From the NCBI GenBank assembly GCA_049970635.1, contig JBMFMO010000001.1, positions 1 through 40,594 of the forward strand: 40,594 bases of DNA, in the 5' to 3' direction. How positions within the stretch are numbered: the stretch's first letter is position 1; every line of letters begins with the position of its first letter. A program made the translations under genes and the position numbers. This DNA is from Minisyncoccia bacterium. GTDB taxonomy: Bacteria; Patescibacteriota; Minisyncoccia; UBA6257; HR35. The notes beneath the pieces are model-generated. The model was not told the DNA's origin. It saw only the letters and a list, made by a program, of their open reading frames with translations, and made no database searches. Shown here piece by piece: positions 4,863-40,515 of the stretch.

Positions 4863-5695
4863 TTAAAAGAAGGTATATTTTTTACATCCTATCAACAATA
4901 ATTTTTTTATTTGGTGGGTTTGCTCCTAATATCTTTAATATAAATTATGGGATAGATTTAAAGGGAGGGCAATTGATTGAAATTAGAACGAGTTTAAAAG
5001 ATATAAATTTTATTTTAAAGGAGATGAATATAAGCGGTGATTTGACAAAAACAAAAGATAGCATAATATTAAAAACAAGAAATGTTGATCCAAACCTTCT
5101 TTTAAACGAGATAAAAAGATATGATCAAAACGCAAAGATAGTAAAATTAGATGAAATTAGCCCTTCATTAAGCGGAGAACTTGTTAAAAAATCACATCTT
5201 GCAATATTATTTGTTTTATTAGGTATAGGAATTTATATAACAATAGCATTTTGGGAAAAAAGAGGATTAATAAGTGGTTTTTTGTTTGGGATTGTAACGG
5301 TTATAACATTGTTTCATGATGTTATAGGAAGTTTGGGGGTCTTTACATTACTTTCTCATATATACAATTTTGAATTTAATATAAATATAATAATAGCATT
5401 TTTACTTGTCGCATCTTTTTCAACACATGATACAATAGTTGTTTTTGATAGATTAAGAGAAAATTTAAAAAGAGCTGGGAAAATATCTGAAGATATTTTT
5501 GAAAATTCTATAAGGCAAACAATTGTAAGATCTACAAATATTTCTTTAACAATAATATTATCAATATTACCTCTATTATTTTTGATTGAAAATATAAAAC
5601 CATTTGCTTTAGTTTTAATAATAGGAACAATAATAGGAACTTATTCTTCTTTATTTTTAGCAACTCCACTTGTTTATGATTTAACAAGAAAATGA
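4859..5695 (+). CDS. secF: Protein-export membrane protein SecF
   Basis: 278 aa. NYGIDLKGG motif and a six-helix hydrophobic profile. ATGA overlap with gatB. No adjacent secD. Confidence 0.8.
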   Translation: MIKRRYIFYILSTIIFLFGGFAPNIFNINYGIDLKGGQLIEIRTSLKDINFILKEMNISGDLTKTKDSIILKTRNVDPNLLLNEIKRYDQNAKIVKLDEISPSLSGELVKKSHLAILFVLLGIGIYITIAFWEKRGLISGFLFGIVTVITLFHDVIGSLGVFTLLSHIYNFEFNINIIIAFLLVASFSTHDTIVVFDRLRENLKRAGKISEDIFENSIRQTIVRSTNISLTIILSILPLLFLIENIKPFALVLIIGTIIGTYSSLFLATPLVYDLTRK

Positions 5696-6333
5696 AAATT
5701 ATACCTGCTATAAATACTAGAAGTTTTGATGAGGCTAAAGAAAGGATAAATTTATTAAAAGATTTGACAAAAGATTTTCATATAGATATTTCTTCAATTG
5801 ATTTTTCAAATTATGAAACTTGGCAAAATCCTAAAGAAATTGATAAATTAGACGACGATTTAAAACTTCATCTGCATTTAATGATAAGATTAAAACCACA
5901 AGAAATTTTAAAATGGGATAACAAAAGAATTAAATCTTTTATCTTGCATTTAGAAGGAACAAATTTACCAGATGCTTTATTAAAATTTTCTAAAAAAACT
6001 AAAAAAAGTATATTTGTTGCATGGAGCCCTAAGATAGAAAAAGAATTTATTGAAAGATATATAAAATTTGTAGATGGAATTTTAGTTTTAGGAGTTGAGC
6101 CTGGAAAATCTGGACAAAAAATTTTGGAAGATACATTTGAAAGAATAAAAATAGCAAAAAATTTTTTAAATAATAAACAAAAACTAATAGTAGATGGAGG
6201 AATTAATATGGAAAACATCAAAGATATAATAAAGCTTAATGTTGATATTATAGTTATAGGATCAGCAATATTTGAGGGAAATAACCCAAAAGAAAACTAT
6301 TTAAAGTTTTTAAAAGCCGCTGATGAACGCTGA
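5692..6333 (+). CDS. rpe: Ribulose-phosphate 3-epimerase family protein
   Basis: 213 aa. IIPAI, HIDIS, LHLHLM, GVEPGKSGQKI and VDGGIN..VIGSAIF match the Rpe barrel signature positions. The sequence is divergent. Confidence 0.65.
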   Translation: MKIIPAINTRSFDEAKERINLLKDLTKDFHIDISSIDFSNYETWQNPKEIDKLDDDLKLHLHLMIRLKPQEILKWDNKRIKSFILHLEGTNLPDALLKFSKKTKKSIFVAWSPKIEKEFIERYIKFVDGILVLGVEPGKSGQKILEDTFERIKIAKNFLNNKQKLIVDGGINMENIKDIIKLNVDIIVIGSAIFEGNNPKENYLKFLKAADER

Positions 6334-6362
6334 TAAATAATGAACCACGGATTTACGCTGAT
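6318..6362 (+). repeat. Phased word array: CGCTGAT/CACGGAT x4, starting inside the rpe 3' end
   Basis: Word starts at 6318, 6328, 6346, 6356 (spacing 10, 18, 10). The rpe stop TGA (6331-6333) lies inside the second word. Confidence 0.8.
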
Positions 6363-6367
6363 ATTAT

Positions 6368-6409
6368 ATTCGTGAATAATTCGTATAGTTTATTCGTGAT
6401 TAATTCGTG
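6368..6409 (+). repeat. Phased word array: ATTCGTG x4 (one copy ATTCGTA)
   Basis: Word starts at 6368, 6379, 6392, 6403. The last word abuts the TATAAT at 6410. Confidence 0.85.
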
Positions 6410-6423: not shown

Positions 6424-7404
6424 ATGAAAAGGATTTTAACTGGAATAAAGCCAACAGGAGAGATACAGCTTGGAAATTATTTAGGAATGATAAAAAACAT
6501 TATTGATATGCAAAATAAATATGAAATTTTTTTAATGGTTGCTAATTTGCATGCCCAAACAGTTCCATTTGACCCAAAAGAGATAAAAAGATTAACTTAT
6601 GATTTAGTTTCATCTTTTATAGCTCTTGGGATTGATCCTAAAAAAACAACAATATTTCTACAATCTGATGTTCCTGCTCATCTATATTTATATTGGATTT
6701 TAGGATGTATTTCTCCATTAGGAGATTTAATGAGAATGCATGAATTTAAGGAGCAAAGTCAAAGATATAAAAAAGAAGGAGTTGGGGCTGGAATTTTAAT
6801 GTATCCTGTTTTAATGGCTGCTGATATTTTAATTTACAATGCTGATTTAGTACCAGTTGGTGAAGATCAGAGACAGCATGTTGAGCTTACAAGAGAATTA
6901 GCAAGAAAATTTAATAGATTATTTGGAAAAACATTTAAAATTCCTGAAATTTTTATACAACCAGAAACAGCTAAAATAATGAGTTTAGATAATCCAAATA
7001 AAAAAATGTCTAAGTCTTTACCGGAGGGATGTTTAGAAATATTTGCAGATGAAAAAGTTATAAAAGAAAAGATATTAAAAGCTGTTACTGATTCAGGAAA
7101 AGAGATAAAATATGATCCAGTAAATAAACCAGCTATAAGTAATTTAATGACAATCTATAAATATTTAACTAAGAAAACATATTCTGAAATTGAAGAAGAA
7201 TTTAAAGGAAAGGGATATTATGAATTTAAAAATGCTATAATAGATGCATTCTTCAAATATTTTGATAAAGTAAGAAAAATTAAAAAGAAAATTAATAAAA
7301 ATTTTGTAAAAAAGATATTAAAACAAGGAGCAGATAGAGCAAACAAAACAGTAAACAAAAACCTAAAGCTCATATTGAAAAGAACAGGGTTAATTTTAGA
7401 TTAA
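6424..7404 (+). CDS. trpS: Tryptophan--tRNA ligase
   Basis: 326 aa. N-terminal GIKPTGEIQLGNYLG (class I HIGH region), GEDQRQH, and a KMSKS motif. Confidence 0.9.
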   Translation: MKRILTGIKPTGEIQLGNYLGMIKNIIDMQNKYEIFLMVANLHAQTVPFDPKEIKRLTYDLVSSFIALGIDPKKTTIFLQSDVPAHLYLYWILGCISPLGDLMRMHEFKEQSQRYKKEGVGAGILMYPVLMAADILIYNADLVPVGEDQRQHVELTRELARKFNRLFGKTFKIPEIFIQPETAKIMSLDNPNKKMSKSLPEGCLEIFADEKVIKEKILKAVTDSGKEIKYDPVNKPAISNLMTIYKYLTKKTYSEIEEEFKGKGYYEFKNAIIDAFFKYFDKVRKIKKKINKNFVKKILKQGADRANKTVNKNLKLILKRTGLILD

Positions 7405-7469
7405 AATATAAGAATATATAAAAAGTGGTTTAAAATAACAAATTAAAGCATTAGTATCAAAAGTAAACA

Positions 7470-7625
7470 TTAAATTACCTTCCTATCTTTCCTAATTCTT
7501 CTTTGCCACTTCAATGGATTTATTATTTTTTTATTTTTCCATAAACCAGCAGCTTTTTCCCAAATTTTCCAATTTTTCTTCAAAACCAATCTTTTTTCTT
7601 TTTTTATTTCTACTATTTTAGTCAT
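7470..7625 (-). CDS. Hypothetical small basic protein (51 aa), not in the ORF track
   Basis: Hand translation: MTKIVEIKKEKRLVLKKNWKIWEKAAGLWKNKKIINPLKWQRRIRKDRKVI. It lies downstream of the GC-rich island. No family was recognised. Confidence 0.3.
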   Translation of the reverse strand: MTKIVEIKKEKRLVLKKNWKIWEKAAGLWKNKKIINPLKWQRRIRKDRKVI

Positions 7626-7647
7626 AGTTTAATTACAACATAAATTA

Positions 7648-7733
7648 GCCTGCCTGCCCTCCCTGCCCTGCCTGACGGCAAGGCAGGGAGCGGGCCTGCC
7701 TCGCCTGGTCAAGGCAGGCAAACTTGCTTTGCC
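7648..7733. repeat. GC-rich island built from GCCTGCC/GGCAGGC words; three potential hairpins
   Basis: Hairpins: CCCTGCC (7666-7672)/GGCAGGG (7682-7688); GCCTGCC (7694-7700)/GGCAGGC (7713-7719); GGCAAA (7717-7722)/TTTGCC (7728-7733). Composition contrasts sharply with the AT-rich flanks. Confidence 0.7.
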
Positions 7734-7748
7734 AAAACCGAATAGAAT

Positions 7749-7823
7749 ATCCGCGTTCATCCGCGGTTTTTATTAGAGATCAGCGTATATCCGCGGCTGA
7801 AAATATATCCGCGTTAATCAGCG
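7749..7823 (-). repeat. Phased word array: ATCCGCG/ATCAGCG x6 (reverse complement of CGCGGAT/CGCTGAT)
   Basis: Word starts at 7749, 7759, 7779, 7789, 7807, 7817 (spacing 10, 20, 10, 18, 10). The array ends 1 nt from the dnaJ stop. Confidence 0.85.
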
Positions 7824-7824
7824 G

Positions 7825-8853
7825 TTATTGTTTTTCTATTTCTTCTTTGATTTTTTTTAGTAGTTCTTTGATTTTTGGAGTTAATTTTTTGATTGGTTTT
7901 ATATTTACTTTAATTATTAAATCTCCTCCATGTATACCATATCCAGGTATTCTTATATAATCTTCAGTAAAGTTTTCAGGAATTTTTACATTAATATCTT
8001 TGCCAAAAAAGTTTATCTTTAAATCTTTCCCCAATATTGCATCAATTATATTTAAATCTATAGATGTTATAATATCCCTTCCTTTTACATCATATTTTGG
8101 ATGTTTTTGTATATTTATTCTTATCAAAAGATCTCCGCTCTTTTTTGTTTTTGGATTTTGGTCACCCAAGCCTGCTATTCTTATAATTTCATATGGATTA
8201 AAGTTTTTGGGCAAATTTATCTTTACAACCTCATCTTTTATAATATATCCTCTTCCTTGGCAATTTTTACATACTTTTTCAGGAATTTTTCCTGTTCCAT
8301 TACAATTTCTACAAATTTTGCTAGTTTCAAAGATAAATCCTGTAAAGAAGCTTGATTTTGATCTTATTTTTCCATAACCATTACAAATAGGACATTTTAT
8401 TAATCTTTTAGTTTCGCTTCCTGTTCCATCACAATTTGGGCATATAACTTTTCTCTTAAAATTTATAACCTTTTCTATTCCATTTAAAATTTCTGGAATT
8501 GTAACATCAATATCTAAAATAATATCCTTACTTTTTTCTTCAGGATAAAAAGAAAAAAAATCCTCTAATAAATCAGATAGTAAATCATCAAAATCTTGTC
8601 TTCTAAAAAAGCTTTCCAAATCTTCAAATCCAAATCCAGGAAACTCAAATCTTCCCATCTTTCTTTTCATATCATACTCTTGCCTTAATTTTTTATCTGA
8701 CAAAATTCTATATGCTTCTAAAATTTTTTTAAATTTTTCAGCATCTCCACCCATATCAGGATGGTATTTTTTAGCAAGCTCCCTAAACCTTTTCTTTATC
8801 TCTTCTTCAGATGCATTCTCTGGTACTCCTAATATTTGATAATAATCTTCCAT
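7825..8853 (-). CDS. dnaJ: Molecular chaperone DnaJ
   Basis: 342 aa. J domain with YHPD. Four CxxCxGxG zinc-finger repeats: [32 protein letters not shown]. Confidence 0.9.
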
Positions 8854-8854
8854 C

Positions 8855-9784
8855 TTATATTTTGATTAATTCTTTTTCTTTTGTTTCTTTTTCTATCTTA
8901 ATAATTTTTATTTTTAAAAATATAAGGTAAATAAGATAAGATAAGATTGAAATAAATATTCCTAAAAAGTAAAGTATTGATTGGGCTGTTAGAAAAACAA
9001 AAACTCCGAAGATAATCTTTGTCGCCATCTCTTTTTTCTTATCATTTTTCAATAATTGTGTTTGATTATATAGATATTCTGAAATTGCTGTTTTTAATGT
9101 TGAATCTTCATTTAGATTTAATGAAAATTTTTTGTTTAATTCATTTATATAAAGCTTAATTGCTAATTTTTTCCCTTCTTCATCTAAATTTGAGTTTAAA
9201 TTTTTTAAAATAATATCAGAAAGTTTATTATTTAAATAATCTTCCTTTGTAAAAAATGCAGATGCTTTTCCTATAAAACTAACAATATTTTCTATCTTCT
9301 CTTTTTCTAAACCACTTATATTAAAAACAAAAACAATGTAAGAGAACAAAATTAATAAAATTATTAAAGAATAAAAATTCCATATTGTTCTAAAATAATT
9401 TGTCCATTTTATCCTCAATGAATTCTTATAATCTTCTATTAGATAAATTATAGCAATTGAATTTAAAATTAAAAATGAAACCAATGAAGAAATTATAAAA
9501 TTTAGATTAAGTTTATAAATAAAGCTATATAAAATAGATGATTCTAATAAAAGAAGGATTAGGATCTGAACAAAATTAAAGTTTAGAAAAGAGACAAGAG
9601 AAAGGTTTAAAAATAAGATAAAAATAAAAAATGATAAGATAAAATTTTTGAGATTAAAAACTGGTTGTTTTAAAACCAAAAACAAAAAAGAGAAGAAAAG
9701 TATTAATATGATAATTAAAAATAAAGAATAAAATTTTCTTTCTGTTCTATAGATCTTTGAAATATCTTCTAATCTTAAAACCAT
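8855..9784 (-). CDS. Hypothetical polytopic membrane protein inserted between dnaK and dnaJ
   Basis: 309 aa with several long hydrophobic segments. It is tightly packed, with no gap to dnaK and a 1-nt gap to dnaJ. No family was recognised. Confidence 0.5.
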
Positions 9785-11599
9785 TTATGTTTGTTGTTGT
9801 CCATAAAATTGTTGACCTATTTGTGAAATGATTGATGAAAGTTCTTTTATTTTATTATCAATCTCATCAGGATCATTGCTTCTATTTTTTATATCTTCTA
9901 ATTCCTTAATCTTATCTTCAATTGTCTTAACTAAATCTTCCGATATTTTATCTTTATAATCATTTAATATCTTTCTTGTCTGATAAATAATATTATCTGC
10001 CTGATTTTTTGCTTCTGCCAATCTTCTTTTTCTTAAATCTTCTTCTGCATGCATTTCTGCTTCTTTTTTCATCCTTTCTATCTCTTCTTTTGAAAGATTT
10101 GTTGATCCCTCAATTCTCACAGATTGTGTTTTACCAGTTGCCTTATCTTTTGCAGTAACAGTTAATATTCCATTAACATCAATATCAAATGTAACTTCAA
10201 TCTGTGGAACTCCTCTTGGAGCTGGTGGTATTCCATCTAAAATAAATCTTGCTAGTGTTTTATTATCATCTGCTATTGGTCTTTCTCCTTGGACAACATG
10301 AATTTCTACTGATGTTTGGTTATCTGCTGCAGTTGTAAATATTTCTGTCTTAGAATATGGGATCGGTGTATTTTTAGGAATCATAGGGTGAGCAATATTT
10401 CCTAATGTTTCAATAGATAATGTTAATGGTGTTACATCTAAAAGCAAAACTTCTCTAACCTCTCCTTGTAATATTCCTGCTTGAATTGCTGCTCCTATTG
10501 CTACAACTTCATCTGGGTTTATATCTTTTCTTGGTTCTTTTCCAAAATAATCTTTCACCATTTTTTGAATTAATGGCATTCTTGTTTGTCCTCCAACTAA
10601 AATGATCTCATCAATATCTTTTGGTGTTAATCCTATCTCTTTCAAAGTTTTATCAACTATCTCCATTGATCTTTCTACAAAATGTTTTGTTAAATTTTCT
10701 AATTGTGCTCTTGTAAGTTTAAAGTATAAATGCTTTGGCTGGCCTTCATAAGAAGTTATAAATGGAAGATTAATTTCTGTTTCATATAAAGTAGAAAGTT
10801 CTTGTTTTGCTTTTTCTGCTGCTTCTTTTAATCTTTGTAATGCTAAAGGATCTTTGCTTAAATCTATTCCTTCTTGTTTTTTATATTCTTCTATTAAAAA
10901 TTTAATAATCTCTTGATCAAAATCGTCTCCACCCAAAAATGTATCTCCACCTATCCCTTTTGTTTCTATAACATTATCTCCTATTTCTAAAACAGATACA
11001 TCAAATGTTCCGCCACCAAAATCATAAACTAAAATTTTTTGATTAACATTTTTATCTAATCCATATGCTAATGCTGCTGCTGTTGGCTCTGGTAATATTC
11101 TTCTAACATTAAATCCTGCTATTTCTCCTGCTGCTTTTGTTGCTGCTCTTTGTGAATCATTAAAATATGCTGGTACTGTTATAACTGCATCTGTTATTTT
11201 TTCTCCCAATTTTTGTTCAACATCTAATTTTATCTTTTGTAAAATCATAGCAGAAATTTCTTCTGGCCTATACCATTTATCTCCCATCTTAACTTCAACT
11301 CCTCCATTTGCAGATTCTCTTATTTCATATGGCAAAATTTTTTTAGCTTTTTGAACTTCTTCATCACTATATCTTCTACCAATCAATCTTTTTATAGAAA
11401 ATATTGTATTTTGAGGATTTGTTATAGCTTGTCTTTTTGCTAAAATCCCAACAATTCTTTCACCAGATTTTGAAATAGCAACAACAGAAGGAGTTAATCT
11501 CCCTCCTTCAGGATTTTCAATAACACGGGGAGTTCCAGCTTCAACAATCGCAGCAACTGAATTTGTTGTTCCTAAATCTATTCCTAAAATCTTTTGCAT
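9785..11599 (-). CDS. dnaK: Molecular chaperone DnaK (Hsp70)
   Basis: 604 aa. [19 protein letters not shown], and a full substrate-binding domain and lid. Confidence 0.95.
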
Positions 11600-11617: not shown

Positions 11618-11872
11618 TTAATTAATGTTAAAAAATTCTTTTAAATAATAATTATTTAATATTTCCTTATAATGGGATTGTTGGGAAATTTTTCTGTTAA
11701 CAGGAGATAAAAATTTTTTGAAGATAAAAATTTTGTTTAACAAAAAATTGTTATCCTTATAGGCTAAAAATCCCTTTATTTTCCTATATTTTTCAACATT
11801 ACAAAACCTTTCTTCAAAATTTTTTATTCTTCTATTTGTTGTTCCTAAACCTATTCCTAAAATCTTTTGCAT
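11618..11872 (-). pseudogene. Duplicated dnaK 5' end (first 13 codons) fused to an 84-codon open frame spanning an AT-rich insert
   Basis: 11834-11872 matches 11561-11599 at 38/39 nt. The ATG at 11872 sits 1 nt after the grpE stop. The frame stays open to 11618, 19 nt before the real dnaK ATG. Confidence 0.6.
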
Positions 11873-11873
11873 C

Positions 11874-12386
11874 TTAATGAACAATTACTTTTACTTTTGC
11901 TGGTCTTAATAATTGATCATTTAATTTATATCCTTTAGCCAAAACTTCTATTATTAAATTATCATCACTTTTATCGCAATTTTCTTTATCGCATTTTTTT
12001 GTTGAAATAGCTTCATGAAACTTTGGATCAAATTTTTCTCCCTTTGGATCTATAACTTCTAATCCATATCTTTTTAAAATCCCCCAAATTTGTGCTTGTA
12101 TCATATAATATCCTTTTCCTAAATTTTTTTCCTTTTCATCATCACTTAAAGAATTTGTAGCCAAATCTAAACTATCCAAAACTGGCAATAATTCTAAAAT
12201 CAATCCAGCATTTGCAAAATATATTATATTTTTCATCTTTTCCTCAGCCTCTTTTTGATAATTTAAATGTTCAACCTTCATCTTTTTTAAATTAGCAATC
12301 AAATCCTCATTTTCTTTCTTTAATTTTTCAATTGTCTCTTGCAATTCTTTTACTGTTTCGTCTTCTGTTGGTAATTTTTCATCCAT
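11874..12386 (-). CDS. grpE: Nucleotide exchange factor GrpE
   Basis: 170 aa. An N-terminal coiled-coil is followed by a C-terminal beta domain (FDPKFHEAIS...RPAKVKV). Confidence 0.85.
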   Translation of the reverse strand: MDEKLPTEDETVKELQETIEKLKKENEDLIANLKKMKVEHLNYQKEAEEKMKNIIYFANAGLILELLPVLDSLDLATNSLSDDEKEKNLGKGYYMIQAQIWGILKRYGLEVIDPKGEKFDPKFHEAISTKKCDKENCDKSDDNLIIEVLAKGYKLNDQLLRPAKVKVIVH

Positions 12387-13478: not shown

Positions 13479-13507
13479 ATTATAACAAATTGTCACCCTC
13501 TTGTCAA
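13479..13507 (-). promoter_or_regulatory. Consensus sigma70 promoter TTGACA-17-TGtTATAAT for the hsp20-hrcA-grpE-dnaK operon
   Basis: The minus strand reads TTGACA (13507-13502), 17 nt, TATAAT (13484-13479), with TG at the extended -10 position. Confidence 0.7.
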
Positions 13508-13516
13508 GGGTGCTAA
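13490..13516 (-). promoter_or_regulatory. CIRCE-like HrcA operator TTAGCACCC-N9-GGGTGACAA
   Basis: Compare the CIRCE consensus TTAGCACTC-N9-GAGTGCTAA. The arms pair at 7 of 9 positions. The -35 hexamer lies inside the N9 spacer. The operator overlaps the stop codon of the upstream 402-aa gene. Confidence 0.7.
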
Positions 13517-17811: not shown

Positions 17812-18656
17812 TATAAAATCTCTTTTATCTTATCTTTGTATCTATTAAATAAACTTAATTTTAGTTTTCCAATGTATTCTTCTCCTATTGAATATTTTGC
17901 CCTAAAAGAGATTGTTAATTCATAAAAATCTTGTGAAATATTAATATTATCTTCAACCCCACATCTTACAATTTGTTGATTTTCTTCTTTAAACTTTTCT
18001 AAAAAATTATTAAGATCTTTAAGGAATTCATCAAAATCAACATTCTTATCAAGCTTTATTTTGAAAGAAAATTTTTTTGTTTCTCTGCTTAAATTAATTA
18101 TTGATAATATTTGGCTGTTTGGGAAAAATATTAAATTTCCTTCTTTATCTTTTAAAACAATATATCTTAAATTAATTTTTATAACCTTTCCTGTAAATTG
18201 TGGAGTATTGTTTATCATTATCAATTCTCCTTTTCTTATTTGATCTTCAAATAATAAAAGCCATCCTTTTATAATATCTTGAATTGTACTTTGAAAAATA
18301 ACAACAAAAGCTGCACCTATAAATCCTAAACCAGTAATAAATGGAATTAATTTTATTTCAAATTCTCTTAATACCAAAAAGAAAAATATTAAAAAAATTA
18401 TTACCTTTAAAATAGAATCCAAAACAGAAGAAAGCGTTGATATCCTTTCTGCCTGTACCTCTTCTCCTTTAATATTTTTTATCTTAACTCCAATCTTTAC
18501 AGATTTATAAATTATCTTTCTGAATAAAATATAGATTATAAGAAGAATAATAAAATAAATCCCTATATTTAAAAATTTTTCCCTGCTTTCTTCCAAAAAT
18601 ATCCTAAAAAATTTAAGATATAAATTTAAGCTTTTTTCCATTTTAAAATTATACAA
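17811..18656 (-). CDS. Small-conductance mechanosensitive channel (MscS family)
   Basis: 281 aa. N-terminal TM helices, then the MscS beta domain (IIKGWLLLFEDQIRKGELI...GKVIKINLRYIVLKDKEGNLIFFPNSQI). Confidence 0.8.
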   Translation of the reverse strand: MYNFKMEKSLNLYLKFFRIFLEESREKFLNIGIYFIILLIIYILFRKIIYKSVKIGVKIKNIKGEEVQAERISTLSSVLDSILKVIIFLIFFFLVLREFEIKLIPFITGLGFIGAAFVVIFQSTIQDIIKGWLLLFEDQIRKGELIMINNTPQFTGKVIKINLRYIVLKDKEGNLIFFPNSQILSIINLSRETKKFSFKIKLDKNVDFDEFLKDLNNFLEKFKEENQQIVRCGVEDNINISQDFYELTISFRAKYSIGEEYIGKLKLSLFNRYKDKIKEIL

Positions 18657-19260
18657 AAATCTTATTTTGCTTACTAATTTTAATTGCCTTATTTAAAATT
18701 TTAATTGTTTCATCATATGTTTTTCTATCAACAAAATATGGTGTTCCATCTTTACCACCATGAGTAAATGTATATCTTGCAGGATCTATCTTTGATGTAT
18801 CCTTATTATAAATTAATTCTCCTACTAAAGAAATCGCCCTTATTGTTTTTGGACCAACTCCTTCTATTAAAAGTAAATCTTCTATTGTTTTTGGTTCTAA
18901 AAATGATGCTTTATAGATTGTTTTTTTCAATCTTTTTATATCAAATTTTTCTTCCAAGACAGGATGATACTTAAATTCTATATCTGGTAAAAATAGATTT
19001 TTTATCTTTTTATCATCTTGTTTCTTGTTTACTATATTTAGATCTTTTATAAGTTCATATGGTTGATTTACCATTTCAACAATAAGATTTTTATTCTCTA
19101 AACTATCTTTATGTGTAAGATTTAAAACTCTTTTAAATTTAATCTCTGAAACTATTCCTGAATGTGGTTCTAATGTCATATCTTTTACATTTTTTGAAAA
19201 CCAATGGTATCTTCTTGCCAATCCATAACTTGTATTCATTCCTTGCTGTATTACTCCCAT
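18649..19260 (-). CDS. DUF763 family protein, C-terminal part (contains a helix-hairpin-helix)
   Basis: 203 aa, starting GVIQQGMN..ARRYHW. HhH-like LIEGVGPKTIRAISLVGELI. It continues the upstream ORF in another frame. Confidence 0.6.
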   Translation of the reverse strand: MGVIQQGMNTSYGLARRYHWFSKNVKDMTLEPHSGIVSEIKFKRVLNLTHKDSLENKNLIVEMVNQPYELIKDLNIVNKKQDDKKIKNLFLPDIEFKYHPVLEEKFDIKRLKKTIYKASFLEPKTIEDLLLIEGVGPKTIRAISLVGELIYNKDTSKIDPARYTFTHGGKDGTPYFVDRKTYDETIKILNKAIKISKQNKIFV

Positions 19261-19715
19261 ATTTTATCTTTATAAAATATAAAAGCATGGTGGTAAATAT
19301 TAAATCCATCTTGAATTAATGAATTATCTACTTTTGCTACTAATCTTGAAATTTTTATATAGTTTTTTGGATCAAAACCAATTTTTTCTCCAAATATAAC
19401 TAATTCTTCTGGGGTTTTTCTTGATGTTTTTCCCTTTCCTCCACAGATATAAATTCCTAAATTTTTTTCTTTTAATGCTTGCTTTAATGCTGCTGTTGTT
19501 ACAACTGTCAAGCCGCTACTGTTCCAATCAAATGCTAATGCACAACCAAAGGCTTGAAACCAGTAAGGATCCGATAATTTTTTAATAAACTCTTCTGCAC
19601 CAAATTCTTCTATTATTATTTCAGCCATAATACCAGAAAGTTTTTTCATTCTTTCAAAGAGCCATTTAGGACATCTTCCTTCATCTAAAGTAAAAGTTGC
19701 TATTCCTGTTCTCAT
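19251..19715 (-). CDS. DUF763 family protein, N-terminal part
   Basis: 154 aa. RTGIATFTLDEGRCPKWLFERMKKL...YWFQAFGCALAFDWNSSGLT is the conserved DUF763 N-terminus as I recall it. It ends 10 nt inside the next ORF. Confidence 0.6.
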   Translation of the reverse strand: MRTGIATFTLDEGRCPKWLFERMKKLSGIMAEIIIEEFGAEEFIKKLSDPYWFQAFGCALAFDWNSSGLTVVTTAALKQALKEKNLGIYICGGKGKTSRKTPEELVIFGEKIGFDPKNYIKISRLVAKVDNSLIQDGFNIYHHAFIFYKDKIWE

Positions 19716-32711: not shown

Positions 32712-33951
32712 CCTTATTAAATTTATAAATCATATAAAAGATTAAGATATAAAGTATAAGAGTTAAAAATAATGGTAATGGAAGATAAATTTTTGGTAAT
32801 TTTGATAGATTATTAACAGCAAGAGTAAAAAGCTCAAATGGAATATTCATTATTTGATTTATTGGATAAAATATAATTAAAAATATTGAAATAAATCCTA
32901 AAAGCATCAAGATAGGGATGAATGGCACTAACAATATATTATTTAGAAATGAAAATAGATTAAATTCTCCAAATTTGTACCATATTAATGGAATAACCAT
33001 TAATTGAGCAGAAAATGTTTCTGAAATAGTTTTATACCTTAAAAATCTTCTAAAATATTCTTCTAAATATAAAATTCCTACAACAGCTAAAAATGATAAT
33101 TGAAATCCTAAATCAGAAATTAATGCCTTTGGATCAAAAATTGTTATTAATAAAACTGAAAGCAAAATTATATTTCTACTTAATGGTATCCTACCAATTG
33201 TTTTACAAAATATTAAAGATATTGTCATTATCCCAGCTCTTATAACTGAACTTTGAAATCCTGTAAATATAATAAAGACAAGAATTAAAATAATTGAAAA
33301 AATGTTTACTATTGGTATTGGTAAAAAAGAAAATCTTAATAGATTAAAAACTGCTGATGATAGAATAGTTAAATTAAAACCAGACATAGCAGTTATGTGG
33401 GACAGGCCAGAATTTTTAAAACTATCTTTCAAATCTTTAATTTTTATATCTTCTCCATACAAAATCCCAGAGATGACTTCAGATGAATTTATTGAGTAAG
33501 AATTTTTTATTATATTATTTAAATAATCTTTAAATCTATAAATTTTGTAAAATTTTGATCTTTCAACTTCTTTAACTTCTTTTATATACAATCTATCTTT
33601 ATAGATATCAAAACTTCCATTAATTCTATCTCCAATGTAAAAATTTTCGTAATATGGAGCATAAACAATATATTCCTTTCCATTATAAAATCCTAAATAT
33701 TTTTTATAGTAAGATGGAGAGTAGATCTTTAAAATTTTTAATTCATTATTAGAAGAATTTAACTTTAAATTTTCTCTAAAATTAGAATAAAGACCACCTA
33801 AAATAAAAGCTAAAAATAAGATTAAAATTATCTTTGGTTTTCTAAATAATAAAGAAAATAATGCTAAAAATGGCCAAAATGGTGTAAGATAATATGATAA
33901 AACACCTAATAAGAAAAATAACGAAGTAAAGAAAAAATAATTTGCTAACAT
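32677..33951 (-). CDS. comEC: ComEC/Rec2 DNA-uptake channel, membrane (competence) part
   Basis: Polytopic, with GLSHITAMSGFNLT and SSVIRAGIM motifs. I chose the start at MLANYFFF (33951), because the ORF-track start at 33981 runs into tRNA-Thr. Confidence 0.75.
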   Translation of the reverse strand: MLANYFFFTSLFFLLGVLSYYLTPFWPFLALFSLLFRKPKIILILFLAFILGGLYSNFRENLKLNSSNNELKILKIYSPSYYKKYLGFYNGKEYIVYAPYYENFYIGDRINGSFDIYKDRLYIKEVKEVERSKFYKIYRFKDYLNNIIKNSYSINSSEVISGILYGEDIKIKDLKDSFKNSGLSHITAMSGFNLTILSSAVFNLLRFSFLPIPIVNIFSIILILVFIIFTGFQSSVIRAGIMTISLIFCKTIGRIPLSRNIILLSVLLITIFDPKALISDLGFQLSFLAVVGILYLEEYFRRFLRYKTISETFSAQLMVIPLIWYKFGEFNLFSFLNNILLVPFIPILMLLGFISIFLIIFYPINQIMNIPFELFTLAVNNLSKLPKIYLPLPLFLTLILYILIFYMIYKFNKDEKIDFNFTLY

Positions 33952-33954
33952 TTG

Positions 33955-34026
33955 AGCCAGAGGTGGGATTCGAACCCACAACCTGCCGCTTACAAGGCGG
34001 CTGCTCTGCCATTGAGCTACTCTGGC
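33955..34026 (-). tRNA. tRNA-Thr(UGU)
   Basis: The reverse complement reads GCCAGAG TA GCTC AATGGCA GAGC A GCCGC CTTGTAA GCGGC AGGTT GTGGG TTCGAAT CCCAC CTCTGGC T. Confidence 0.9.
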
Positions 34027-34036
34027 TTATTAAATA

Positions 34037-34065
34037 ATTATAAGATAAAAGAATAAAGAGTTCAA
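34037..34065 (-). promoter_or_regulatory. Sigma70 promoter TTGAAC-17-TATAAT for tRNA-Thr
   Basis: -35 at 34065-34060, which lies in the unique insert. -10 at 34042-34037, which lies in the duplicated segment. The tRNA 5' end is 10 nt downstream of the -10. Confidence 0.55.
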
Positions 34066-34309
34066 GGAAATTAGAAATTTTCTATTTATAACCCAAGGTT
34101 CAAAAATTATTTATTTTCCTATATTTTTTATGATCTATCTTTAAATAGGATTTGGAAAAAAATTTTGTGAATATAAAAATAAAGTAAAGTTTTTCCATTA
34201 ATAGAAGAAGATCTTTTAAAAAAAATTTTAATCTCTTATCTTAAAAATAGAGTATATGAAAAAATATTGAATTTTCCTATATTTTTTAATATTAAAAATT
34301 TTTTAATAA

Positions 34310-34364
34310 AAGGCGGCTGCTCTGCCATTGAGCTACTCTGGCTTATTAAATAATTATAAGATAA
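34310..34364 (-). pseudogene. Duplicated tRNA-Thr 5' half (nt 1-33, 34310-34342) plus 22 nt of its upstream flank, including the TATAAT
   Basis: A 55-nt exact copy of 33994-34048. The identity ends inside the anticodon. Confidence 0.85.
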
Positions 34365-34444
34365 CACGGACTTAACACGGACAAGAACGGACTTAACGCA
34401 GACAGACGCCGACTTAACACGGACATACACGGACCAAAACGGAC
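34364..34444 (+). repeat. Phased word array: ACACGGAC and variants x8
   Basis: ACGGAC-type cores start at 34366, 34377, 34387, 34398, 34408, 34419, 34429, 34439 (spacing 11, 10, 11, 10, 11, 10, 10). Units 4 and 5 are ACGCAGAC and ACGCCGAC. Confidence 0.9.
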
Positions 34445-34540
34445 ATAAAAATGATATATCTGAACAATCAGTGTCAAGCCCAAACTGTCTGTGTTAAGTC
34501 TAGTATTTTTTAAAAATTAATTCGACCTTATTTAATTATA

Positions 34541-36301
34541 CTAAACTTTTATTATAACTGGTATAATAACTGGTCTTCTATGGGTTTTTCTGAATAAAAA
34601 TTCTGCTATATCTTCTTTTATCCTATATTTTATCTGCTCTTCTTGTATTATAGGTGCTTCTTCTCCTAAATGTAATGTATTTTTTTTAACAATCTGTGCT
34701 ATTAAATTTCTAACTTCTTTTAATAATTCTTTTGACTCCCTTAAATATACAAACCCTCTTGAAATAATATCTGGGCTTTTCTTAATTTTTCCTGTTTGAC
34801 TATCAATTGTAACAATAATAACAAACATTCCTTCTTCTGCTAATGCTTTCCTATCTCTTAAAACAACATCTCCAACATTTCCTAAACCTAATCCATCAAC
34901 ATAGATTAAGTTGCTTGGTACTTTTATATTTTTTATCTCTGGAATATCATTTTCTATCTCTAAAACATCCCCATTTGATAAAATTATCACATTCTCTCTC
35001 TTCATCCCAAGATCAACAGCTATTTCTTCTAATGCTTTCATCATATAAAAATGACCATGAATAGGAATAATATAATTTGGCTTTACTAAATTTATAAAAA
35101 GTTTAATATCATCAGAAAATGCATGTCCTGATGCATGAATATCCATCATTTGATAATGATAAATTTTTGCACCTTGTTTTGCTAATGAATCTTTTAAATT
35201 TTGAACAATTCTTTCATTACCAGGAACAATTGAAGAAGAAAATATTAAAGAATCACCAGGAGTTATTTTGAAATATTTATGTTCTCCATTTGCTATCCTC
35301 ATTAATGCTGAACCTTCTTCTGCTTGTGATCCAGTGCAAATTATCAAAACTTTATTTGGTGGAAGTTTAAATGATTCTTCTGGTTTTATAAATATTCCTT
35401 TACTATATTTTAAATATCCAAGCCTTTTTGTTACTTCAACATTTATCTTCATTGTATGACCATCAATAACAATTTTTCTTCCATATTGTTCTCCTAAATA
35501 TATTAATTGCTGTATTCTTTCAATTAATGATGCAAATGTAGATGCTATTATTCTTCCTTTTGCTCTTTTAAATATCTCCTCAAGGTTTTCCATAATCTTT
35601 CTTTCTGATATTATGTGTCCTTGCTCAGGTGCATTTGTTGAATCTATCATTAATATATCCGTTCCTCTAAATGCTAATTTTACTATTCTTGAAAGATCTG
35701 CTGGCTTATCAAAGACAGGATTAAAATCAATTTTAAAATCACCAGTATGCATAATATTACAAGCAGGAGTTTGAATATAAAAACCTATTGAATCTGGAAT
35801 ATTATGATTAACATGGAAATAATCAATTAAAAATGATCCTAATTTAATAGGTTTATATTCATCTTTTTTTATCTCTACTATATTTAACTTTTGCGATTTT
35901 GGAAAATCTTCTTGTCTTTTAATAATTAAACCTCTTGAGAGGGGGGTTGCATATATTATTGGATTGTTTATCTTTGGTAATATATATGGAATGGCTCCTA
36001 TATGATCATAATGGCCATGCGTTATTAAAATTCCTAAAATATTATTTTTTATCTTTTCTAAATATTCAAAATTTGGAATTGTATAATCAACCCCAAGCAT
36101 ATTTTCAACTTCAGGGTATCCTAAGCCCATATCAACAATTATTGCTTCTATTTTATTATTTTTTTCAAATTCAAAAACAGTAAGATTTCTCCCAATCTCT
36201 TCAAGTCCTCCTAAGGGAATAATTCTTAATTTACCTTCTTTTATCTTTTTAGGAGCGACTTTTGTTTTTTTGACTGTTTCTAAAACAGTACCCTTAATCA
36301 T
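34541..36301 (-). CDS. rnj: Ribonuclease J (beta-CASP metallo-beta-lactamase)
   Basis: 586 aa. LGGLEEIGRN, ITHGHYDHIG, HTGDFK, ASGH. Typical length. Confidence 0.9.
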   Translation of the reverse strand: MIKGTVLETVKKTKVAPKKIKEGKLRIIPLGGLEEIGRNLTVFEFEKNNKIEAIIVDMGLGYPEVENMLGVDYTIPNFEYLEKIKNNILGILITHGHYDHIGAIPYILPKINNPIIYATPLSRGLIIKRQEDFPKSQKLNIVEIKKDEYKPIKLGSFLIDYFHVNHNIPDSIGFYIQTPACNIMHTGDFKIDFNPVFDKPADLSRIVKLAFRGTDILMIDSTNAPEQGHIISERKIMENLEEIFKRAKGRIIASTFASLIERIQQLIYLGEQYGRKIVIDGHTMKINVEVTKRLGYLKYSKGIFIKPEESFKLPPNKVLIICTGSQAEEGSALMRIANGEHKYFKITPGDSLIFSSSIVPGNERIVQNLKDSLAKQGAKIYHYQMMDIHASGHAFSDDIKLFINLVKPNYIIPIHGHFYMMKALEEIAVDLGMKRENVIILSNGDVLEIENDIPEIKNIKVPSNLIYVDGLGLGNVGDVVLRDRKALAEEGMFVIIVTIDSQTGKIKKSPDIISRGFVYLRESKELLKEVRNLIAQIVKKNTLHLGEEAPIIQEEQIKYRIKEDIAEFLFRKTHRRPVIIPVIIKV

Positions 36302-40485: not shown

Positions 40486-40515
40486 GTCCGTGTCTAGTCC
40501 GTGTCTAGTCCGTGT
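40486..40515 (+). repeat. 11-bp tandem GTCCGTGTCTA x3 (reverse complement of the ACACGGAC word)
   Basis: Word starts at 40486, 40497, 40508. The last unit abuts the rpsL stop codon. The array lies in the rpsL-rpsG intercistronic region. Confidence 0.9.

Follow-up and report, generated by a model that had tools for sequence, protein, structure and literature searches.

At positions 34364-34447 of a 40,594-nucleotide stretch of a Minisyncoccia bacterium contig (JBMFMO010000001.1, positions 1 to 40,594; hereafter, the window), eight short GC-rich ACACGGAC-type units stand in direct orientation and are followed by a single inverted unit. This array complex lies in the 3' flank of an RNase J gene, abuts a dead partial copy of tRNA-Thr, and is one of at least nine intergenic arrays of related words in the window. 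Direct units precede inverted ones in seven of seven independent Patescibacteria loci, and close strains differ by whole di-units. These features of anatomy, family membership, turnover, orientation, and rearrangement are observed directly in the compared sequences. We tentatively read the 34364 array as a platform for cooperative protein binding, set in insertion-prone DNA of foldback type at a rearrangement junction specific to its lineage, an interpretation that we place ahead of its competitors and somewhat short of an even chance.

The eight units begin at 34364, 34375, 34385, 34396, 34406, 34417, 34427, and 34437. Units 1, 2, 6, and 7 read ACACGGAC, and the remainder are the variants GAACGGAC (unit 3), ACGCAGAC (unit 4), ACGCCGAC (unit 5), and AAACGGAC (unit 8). 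An earlier sequence-only reading of this DNA had reported the eight-unit phased array, and its unit calls and spacings were confirmed; its starts (34366 onward) are real positions of the ACGGAC 6-mer that fall two bases inside each unit, and it rightly named units 4 and 5 as variants while omitting units 3 and 8. Units measure 10-11 bp with spacers of 2-3 bp, and successive starts are 11, 10, 11, 10, 11, 10, and 10 bp apart. Tandem Repeats Finder (TRF) returned 3.9 copies at period 21 and 8.1 copies at period 10. The array resolves on the plus strand into three 21-bp di-units (34364-34426) and two single units, the di-unit following the pattern xxxCGGACTTA + ACxCxGACxx, and spacings alternate between 11 and 10 bp because the 21-bp di-unit is present in three duplicated copies. 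The "strict 10.5-bp period" with all words on one helical face, as previously proposed, is a by-product of these three di-units plus two single units. Nor does one-face phasing define the family, because sister arrays are spaced at 9-13 bp with super-periods of ~25 and 28-30 bp. Intrinsic curvature was likewise not supported, since the bend estimated with a wedge model was an unremarkable 48 degrees, the 79th percentile of the window background, compared with 144 degrees for a phased A-tract control.

Allowing at most one mismatch, ACACGGAC occurs nine times in the window, always at this locus or at 40486-40515, compared with 1.85 +/- 1.37 times in shuffled sequence, where nine was reached in none of 100 shuffles. 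The unit count at 34364 may be a product of assembly collapse or expansion; comparable arrays with conserved flanks were present in independent assemblies from three samples. The locus holds only incidental open reading frames (ORFs) of up to 64 aa, supporting no coding reading, and a permissive Rfam 15 covariance-model scan of 33900-34600 returned the tRNA and chance-level matches only. Beyond the direct units, an AT-rich spacer assigned to neither strand (34448-34484), containing a small palindrome, CTGAACAATCAG, and TGTCAA (34472-34477), leads to the single inverted unit CTGTCTGTGTTAAGTC (34485-34500, plus strand). This unit reproduces the di-unit junction GACTTAAC(A/G)C(A/G)GACAG in reverse complement and, placed 39 bp beyond the direct array, gives the complex a convergent, direct-then-inverted plan. 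The bounding inverted copy reported earlier is real, its arms (34390-34405 and 34485-34500) being 16 nt long and 94% complementary.

The 34364 array shares its grammar with the other arrays of the window. In one orientation, all window words fit a C-N-G-A-Y or C-G-A-A-Y skeleton, and four skeleton clusters of at least four units were counted, compared with 0.0 in shuffles. The building block of the family is a di-unit of two ~8-bp GC-rich half-sites 10-11 bp apart. Di-units are contiguous in the 34364 array (21-bp period) and 28-30 bp apart at 158-232 and 7749-7823, two arrays that have identical 10/20/10/18/10 spacing in opposite orientation 7.5 kb from each other. Both follow a plan of three di-units, CCGC(G/T)GAT-NN-ACGC(G/T)GAT. 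The plus-strand arrays comprise a series of four at 102-368, namely ATTCGTG x4 (102-139), CGCGGAT-type x7 (143-232), ATTCGGG x3 (250-280), and TTCGCAT x6 (309-367); CGCTGAT/CACGGAT x4 followed by ATTCGTG x4 (6318-6409), between the stop of an rpe-like gene and the start of a class I (W/Y) tRNA synthetase; and ATCCGCG/ATCAGCG x6 (7749-7823), directly past the dnaJ stop. On the minus strand, three ACACGGAC units directly follow the rpsL stop (40486-40515), where, as the sequence-only reading had pointed out, the word recurs as a reverse-complement tandem (GTCCGTGT three times at 11-bp spacing). This array and a small hairpin add ~57 bp of DNA to the rpsL-rpsG spacer that is absent from relatives, in most of which the rpsL-rpsG stop and start codons overlap; contig L003 has the last 38 bp (3' end) of this spacer in common with the window.

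To place these arrays in a wider context, metagenome and viral sequences were scrutinized. Two adjacent ACACGGAC units were found at no fewer than 120 metagenome loci ranging from 29% to 72% GC. Among the matches listed, about half had at least three phased units, mostly 10 bp apart, and the direct-then-inverted order within 130 bp was seen 24 times compared with 0 for the reverse, 17 of the 24 being independent after one repeated eukaryote-like family was dropped. Viral matches to ACGCGGAT gave the same picture, with eight direct-then-inverted cases and no genuine reversal (the sole apparent one being two adjacent elements). The words are mirrored between the two arms, and the spacer dinucleotides often are not. 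Unrelated viral contigs with 54-63% GC share a composite di-unit, CCGCGGAT-N1-2-ACGCGGAT, with the window arrays at 158-232 and 7749-7823. One array-bearing metagenome contig is acidobacterial, with its array in the spacer downstream of murD.

Recurrence of the word itself is less telling. Further ACACGGAC arrays, to which the sequence-only reading had attached weight, do exist in public data but are uninformative, as control words form arrays too. In viral contigs, ACACGGAC was found at 51 loci, 17 with at least three phased units, and the composition-matched control words CAGGCACA and AGCGACCA at 94 loci (14 with at least three phased units) and at least 120 loci (56 with at least three among the matches listed), respectively. 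Given what the control words yield, finding the word in other DNA is no evidence of function; specificity seems limited to the orientation rule and to the di-unit grammar that the arrays share. Some of the control-word arrays in viral contigs are probably phage origin iterons. Two phage contigs (L170 and L196) carry 11-bp arrays, including ACACGGAC x4 and x7, which we likewise take to be origin iterons. Origin iterons, whether of a plasmid, a phage, or an integrated replicon, were also considered for the window array, whose 21-bp higher-order period (TRF, 3.9 copies) is iteron-like, as are the 11-bp arrays of L170 and L196. Such an identity is very improbable here: the window has no initiator gene, Pfam finds housekeeping neighbors only, and at least nine arrays with different words occupy 40 kb.

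Elsewhere in the metagenome data, contig L060, from an organism of 44% GC, contains within 12 kb at least four copies of a 140-170-bp element in which a conserved core (GTCATCGCTTCGCGAAAA) lies between arms made of ACAGAC/ACGGAC arrays. These copies (5330-5468, 9470-9640, 11190-11375, and 11770-11936) are MITE-like (miniature inverted-repeat transposable element), and the contig also carries CGCAAAA, CGCAGATTA, ATTCGTGG, and GGAGGAC arrays. In L034, L038, and L168, ACGGAC arrays occupy the loops of long GC-rich inverted repeats, and the stems in L034 and L038 open with GTAG and close with CTAC, resembling repetitive extragenic palindromes (REPs).

Among relatives, arrays of CCGGAT or GCGGAT words were present in two clades, a 91% relative and Parcubacteria KatS3mg096; relatives at ~75% RNase J identity had no arrays in ~20 kb each. 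In the 91% relative, represented in three metagenomes, a CCGGAT-type array begins 10 nt past the RNase J stop, strains have 10, 12, or 4 units at one site, and an ATCCGCG/ATCCGT array abuts the 3' end of tRNA-Phe. At the corresponding tRNA-Phe position, KatS3mg096 has a ~22-unit ATCCGG/CCGGAT array; it also carries an array of 368 bp that separates def from fmt, immediate neighbors in the window, and one in a divergent promoter gap (L478 5177-5240). In contig L024, RNase J is followed by a 250-bp array element bounded by GRCAGCTGC inverted repeats; the orthologous site in L013 is empty, although L013 too has flanking inverted repeats of this sequence. Words differ at orthologous positions between relatives, and L019 has a different word, AATTCCAAA, in the direct-then-inverted plan after RNase J. 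Where the direct unit changes, the terminal inverted unit co-varies with it (CCAGGAT/ATCCTGG in L001 vs. CCCAGAT/ATCTGGG in L199); the comparison of L001 with L002 was uninformative, the two being 100% identical. Two further segments of KatS3mg096 (L478 8510-8816 and 14022-14376) contain tRNA-like sequences by eye, followed by ~200 bp ending in a second segment like a tRNA 3' end. Both are flanked by repeats of a AACGAGTTCACGA(A/G)TTAACGA word and may be tRNA-targeted insertions.

Turnover of this kind would also be expected of a neutral minisatellite, in which a chance pair of GC-rich words ~10 bp apart would have been expanded by slippage or unequal exchange under relaxed repair, leaving a functionless array whose position at the breakpoint would reflect fragility. 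The shift of unit number by whole units between strains, the different words at orthologous positions, the patchy distribution among relatives, the 21-bp di-unit duplication that accounts for the 11/10 alternation, and the comparable arrays given by control words all fit such an origin. It leaves unexplained, however, the strict direct-then-inverted orientation, the C-N-G-A-Y skeleton common to independent arrays, the composite di-unit recurring in distant genomes, and the insertions that carry unique nonrepeat DNA. We consider the minisatellite unlikely, although the strongest of the competing explanations, and favor protein recognition because slippage leaves the orientation rule, the shared skeleton, and the distant CCGCGGAT-N-ACGCGGAT recurrence unexplained.

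The position of the complex suggests a second competitor. Read on the strand of RNase J (34541-36301, minus strand), a single direct-type unit stands 41 nt past the stop codon and is followed by eight inverted-type units. The RNase J transcript might end in a terminator-like or transcript-stabilizing stem between the inverted unit and a direct unit, formed in RNA or in single-stranded DNA, with one arm expanded into the additional units. Consistent with this, the 16-nt stem is 94% complementary, RNA fold z-scores are -3.1 (minus strand) and -4.2 (plus strand), the inverted unit co-varies with the direct unit between L001 and L199, and related structures directly follow the RNase J stop in L019 and in L003, the latter as a single CGGACG/CGTCCG hairpin. 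Canonical terminators are not enriched in the window, and most metagenome arrays lie 7-40 nt past stop codons (among the matches listed, by crude ORF calls). The loop, however, would span 39-79 nt, compared with the 3-8 nt of an intrinsic terminator, and no U-tract follows, and a search for intrinsic (Rho-independent) terminators found no terminator-like site in 33800-34700. An inverted partner is lacking in many arrays, complementarity between the arms often does not extend to the spacers, and the reverse arrangement, which would be equally stable, was never seen. Single-orientation arrays past stops showed no sense bias (7 vs. 7), and some arrays occupy a divergent promoter gap, as in L478. 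A gene-end hairpin is thus a rather unlikely account, slightly behind the minisatellite.

The other flank of the array records a rearrangement. Intact tRNA-Thr(TGT) is encoded at 33954-34026 on the minus strand, and 34307-34364 duplicates 33991-34048 over 58 nt with one mismatch, located in the anticodon. The copy (minus strand) comprises a -10-like TATAAT and the 5' half of tRNA-Thr to the anticodon loop and stops exactly at the base where the array starts (34364), as the sequence-only reading had observed. Between the two 58-bp copies lies a 258-bp AT-rich insert (34049-34306, no strand) with an internal repeat, TTTTCCTATATTTTTTA. The insert also holds the intact gene's own promoter-like TTGAAC-17-TATAAT (34065-34037), and the copy adjoining the array retains the -10 box only. 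The motif TTTTCCTATATTTT(TT) occurs twice in the insert (34113-34130 and 34271-34288) and again upstream of dnaK (11775-11793), and TTGAAC appears to be the usual -35 box of this genome. In an 88% relative the order is RNase H, 30 bp, tRNA-Thr, and ComEC, with neither array nor duplication, and past RNase J in the 91% relative lie, in turn, an array, a MITE-like element, and tRNA-Ile. Judging from these gene orders, the RNase J/array/tRNA-Thr junction is specific to the window's lineage, because both relatives are arranged otherwise.

Given the adjacent TATAAT, the array could be viewed as a promoter-upstream element, its phased repeats replacing a -35 box in the manner of PhoB or OmpR sites, or acting as curved, UP-like DNA, to drive minus-strand transcription of tRNA-Thr. 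Direct repeats at 10-11 bp have the geometry of response-regulator boxes. The geometry fits on the minus strand, where TATCTTATAAT comes after the last unit, TCCGTG occupies the -35 position of the TATAAT at 34358-34353, and the tRNA 5' end sequence starts 10 nt after TATAAT; the arrays at 309-367 and 6368-6409 also precede TATAAT and a start codon. The "gene" beyond the -10 box is nevertheless only the truncated tRNA copy, and the intact tRNA has its own TTGAAC-17-TATAAT. At 27% GC, TATAAT is frequent by chance, and promoter-like matches were not above shuffles. Other arrays lie past stops, between convergent genes, or within operons; predicted curvature is unremarkable; and the window encodes no regulator for PhoB/OmpR-type boxes. 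The TTGACA that the sequence-only reading proposed as a minus-strand promoter (34477-34472) is present as a hexamer, but its promoter role is unsupported: it was absent from the promoter-scan output and has no acceptable -10 at 16-18 nt, the sequence at that position being TCATTT. The intact tRNA-Thr does not take its promoter from the array, and we regard a promoter-upstream role in general as improbable.

The duplication could alternatively mark a remnant of site-specific integration at tRNA-Thr, with the 58-bp repeat as attL/attR and the array as arm-type recombinase or excisionase sites. The direct repeat has copies 316 bp apart, one end of it lies in the anticodon loop, which is a classic crossover site, and the array abuts it. 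Arrays likewise abut tRNA-Phe in L001 and L013, and the junction is missing in the 88% relative. However, it is the 5' half and promoter that were duplicated and not the 3' part of the tRNA, the repeats are separated by only 258 bp, and no integrase gene occurs in 40 kb. At least eight sites far exceeds known arm-site numbers, and most arrays are not beside tRNA genes. Integration therefore ranks as hardly more probable than a promoter role.

In the reading that we favor, protein binding and mobility of the arrays are what we infer; a sequence-specific protein that reads the word, as the sequence-only reading had guessed, is plausible. The array would be one copy of a fast-evolving intergenic word-array family typical of this Patescibacteria lineage. 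Foldback- or MITE-like DNA would land in intergenic gaps, past stop codons, or beside tRNA genes, and its arrays would grow or shrink by whole units through slippage or unequal exchange. A sequence-specific DNA-binding protein would occupy the arrays as one head-to-tail dimer per di-unit, and the protein filaments on the two arms would face each other. Here, the array would have come to lie in the RNase J 3' flank, at the junction where 58 bp of tRNA-Thr was duplicated.

Several observations weigh against this scheme. Pfam identified no binding protein, transposase, integrase, or obvious small DNA-binding gene in the window, and an all-against-all BLAST of 2563 ORFs around 120 listed metagenome arrays revealed no recurring neighbor gene. 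No clear target-site duplication was seen, the AAAATAA at the rpsL-rpsG insert being weak in AT-rich DNA, and the nonarray DNA of the two ACACGGAC loci (34364 and 40486) has no sequence in common. Many arrays have one orientation only (40486-40515, 102-368, 7749-7823, and L013 4060-4210). Several different words coexist in one genome, so that a single protein must read a loose skeleton only or several proteins are needed. A strong DNA-bound roadblock is hard to reconcile with the presence of an array within the essential rpsL-rpsG operon. Tandem arrays are also common, the control words likewise forming 10-11-bp arrays in viral contigs.

A broader proposal is that convergent C-N-G-A-Y arrays are the cis-element of an undescribed system spanning several phyla (Patescibacteria, Acidobacteriota, and phage-like contigs), either a bacterial mobile element of foldback type that would form a new class, or a protein-based boundary element. 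In the former, a recombinase would polymerize on the direct-repeat di-units; in the latter, the protein-based element would separate transcription units in genomes poor in canonical terminators. We consider this proposal, including its multiphylum range, speculative and unlikely.

Other candidates were tried and rejected. ACACGGACGA fits the CsrA motif A/U-CA-N-GGA-N-G-U/A. A CsrA-sponge RNA was rejected on the grounds that GGA is missing from whole arrays (CGCAGAT, CACGAAT, and GCGAAC) and from units 4 and 5, and that arrays occur in both orientations relative to genes. For a cluster of DnaA boxes (CGCGGATAA resembles TGTGGATAA) there are too many loci, there is no dnaA context, and the CACA part is not kept. 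DNA-uptake sequences, considered with ComEC adjoining, were dismissed as the words vary between arrays and are clustered rather than dispersed. Units of 10-11 bp with 2-3-bp spacers do not make a CRISPR array, which requires 24-48-bp repeats and unique spacers of similar length. A MITE at this locus was not supported, given the single inverted unit, the lack of clear duplication, and the unrelatedness of the two ACACGGAC loci outside the arrays, MITE features being seen only in other genomes (L013/L024 and L060). REPs and their derivatives, REPINs, were set aside for want of a tag and because the repeat is tandem and not a single palindrome.

The window itself is a Patescibacteria (Paceibacteria-like) contig of ~27% GC. 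The nearest named relatives of its RNase J are from Patescibacteria, Parcubacteria, and Paceibacter metagenome-assembled genomes, and an exact-protein lookup found no identical protein on record. All annotated genes are housekeeping (ribosomal proteins, EF-G, the dnaK operon, SecY, tRNA synthetases, and ComEC). The four word arrays at the contig start (1-388) lie upstream of a pyruvate:ferredoxin oxidoreductase-like gene (389-2005), and the contig may start there because of the repeats. A palindrome, TTCTAATTTTCTATAGAAAATTAGAA (29-56), resembles the end of a 190-260-bp element with two inverted copies in L001 (~4925-5110 and 12000-12260; TTCTAATTTTCTATAGAAAATTAGAA-like ends at 5065-5095 and 12020-12051). 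These copies enclose the DNA from tRNA-Phe to RNase J, and each has word arrays close by on its inner side. Both the GC skew and the direction of the genes change at 7400-7830, where genes converge on what may be a replication terminus, and this gap holds a GC-rich CCTGCC-repeat hairpin region (7645-7735). Upstream of hsp20 is a perfect TTGACA-17-(TG)TATAAT promoter (13479-13512), overlapped by an inverted repeat, CACCCTTGACAAGAGGGTG, that could serve as an operator; downstream of hsp20 is an HrcA-like gene. Two overlapping ORFs at 18649-19715 share a single DUF763 protein between them (N-terminal half, 19251-19715; C-terminal half, 18649-19260), a split that could reflect a frameshift, a pseudogene, or a sequencing error.

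Patescibacteria genomes are tiny and compact with little spare DNA, and arrays that invade the rpsL-rpsG and def-fmt junctions need explaining. If a protein reads the arrays, it would offer a handle on gene regulation, chromosome organization, or mobile DNA in a phylum not yet culturable alone, and a common mechanism would be suggested by an orientation rule, direct then inverted, that holds strictly across phyla. If the arrays are slippage products only, they could still be used to mark strains, and their coincidence with contig ends and rearrangement junctions would call for caution in assembly and synteny work.

Searches of the literature by topic and by array strings found no published description of these arrays, and known systems resemble them in part. 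Arrays bound by ribbon-helix-helix proteins, such as the omega heptads of pSM19035 and the ParR/parC 11-bp iterons of plasmid R1, are also runs of short sites, direct and convergent but not divergent, and parC shares the 11-bp unit. Binding there is cooperative along the array, as is proposed here; those systems occupy one or few loci with one word and their own par or regulator genes, whereas the present arrays use several words at many loci and have no cognate gene. OmpR/PhoB boxes similarly place head-to-tail half-sites 10-11 bp apart and can overlap a -35 box, but usually number two to four half-sites upstream of regulated genes, compared with up to ~22 units here, and word arrays are often found past stops or in operons, or, at this locus, upstream of a dead tRNA fragment. 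Plasmid and phage iterons are tandem direct repeats of ~21-22 bp, sometimes with inverted half-sites nearby; unlike them, the arrays have no initiator gene, no AT-rich unwinding-element context, and many loci per genome. Eukaryotic foldback elements are likewise small noncoding insertions with a tandem-repeat body or arms, inverted arms, variable copy number, and filled and empty sites. The same traits characterize BrickBuilt of Porphyromonas gingivalis, a MITE with an internal minisatellite (PMC4596501). Unlike both, the 34364 locus shows neither target duplication nor well-defined terminal inverted repeats, and the ACACGGAC loci have no common core. REPs, bacterial interspersed mosaic elements (BIMEs), and REPINs are abundant, lineage-specific intergenic palindromic repeats just after genes (PMC3733652), and the arrays within GTAG...CTAC hairpins (L034 and L038) recall them; REPs are single 20-40-bp palindromes with a GTAG/CGTC tag and one consensus per genome, in contrast to tandem 10-bp words. 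TAACTGA heptamers, intergenic direct repeats of Beggiatoaceae and cyanobacteria (PMC4679880), are also lineage-wide, short, of unknown function, and possibly spread between phyla, but have a 7-nt unit, one word, and a proposed RNA role, in contrast to 10-11-bp units, several words, and convergent arms. The kind of element is known, that of intergenic tandem or palindromic repeats and MITE-like elements; what is new here is the combination of a 10-11-bp half-site di-unit, several related words per genome, and a strict convergent plan, which belongs to no named family.

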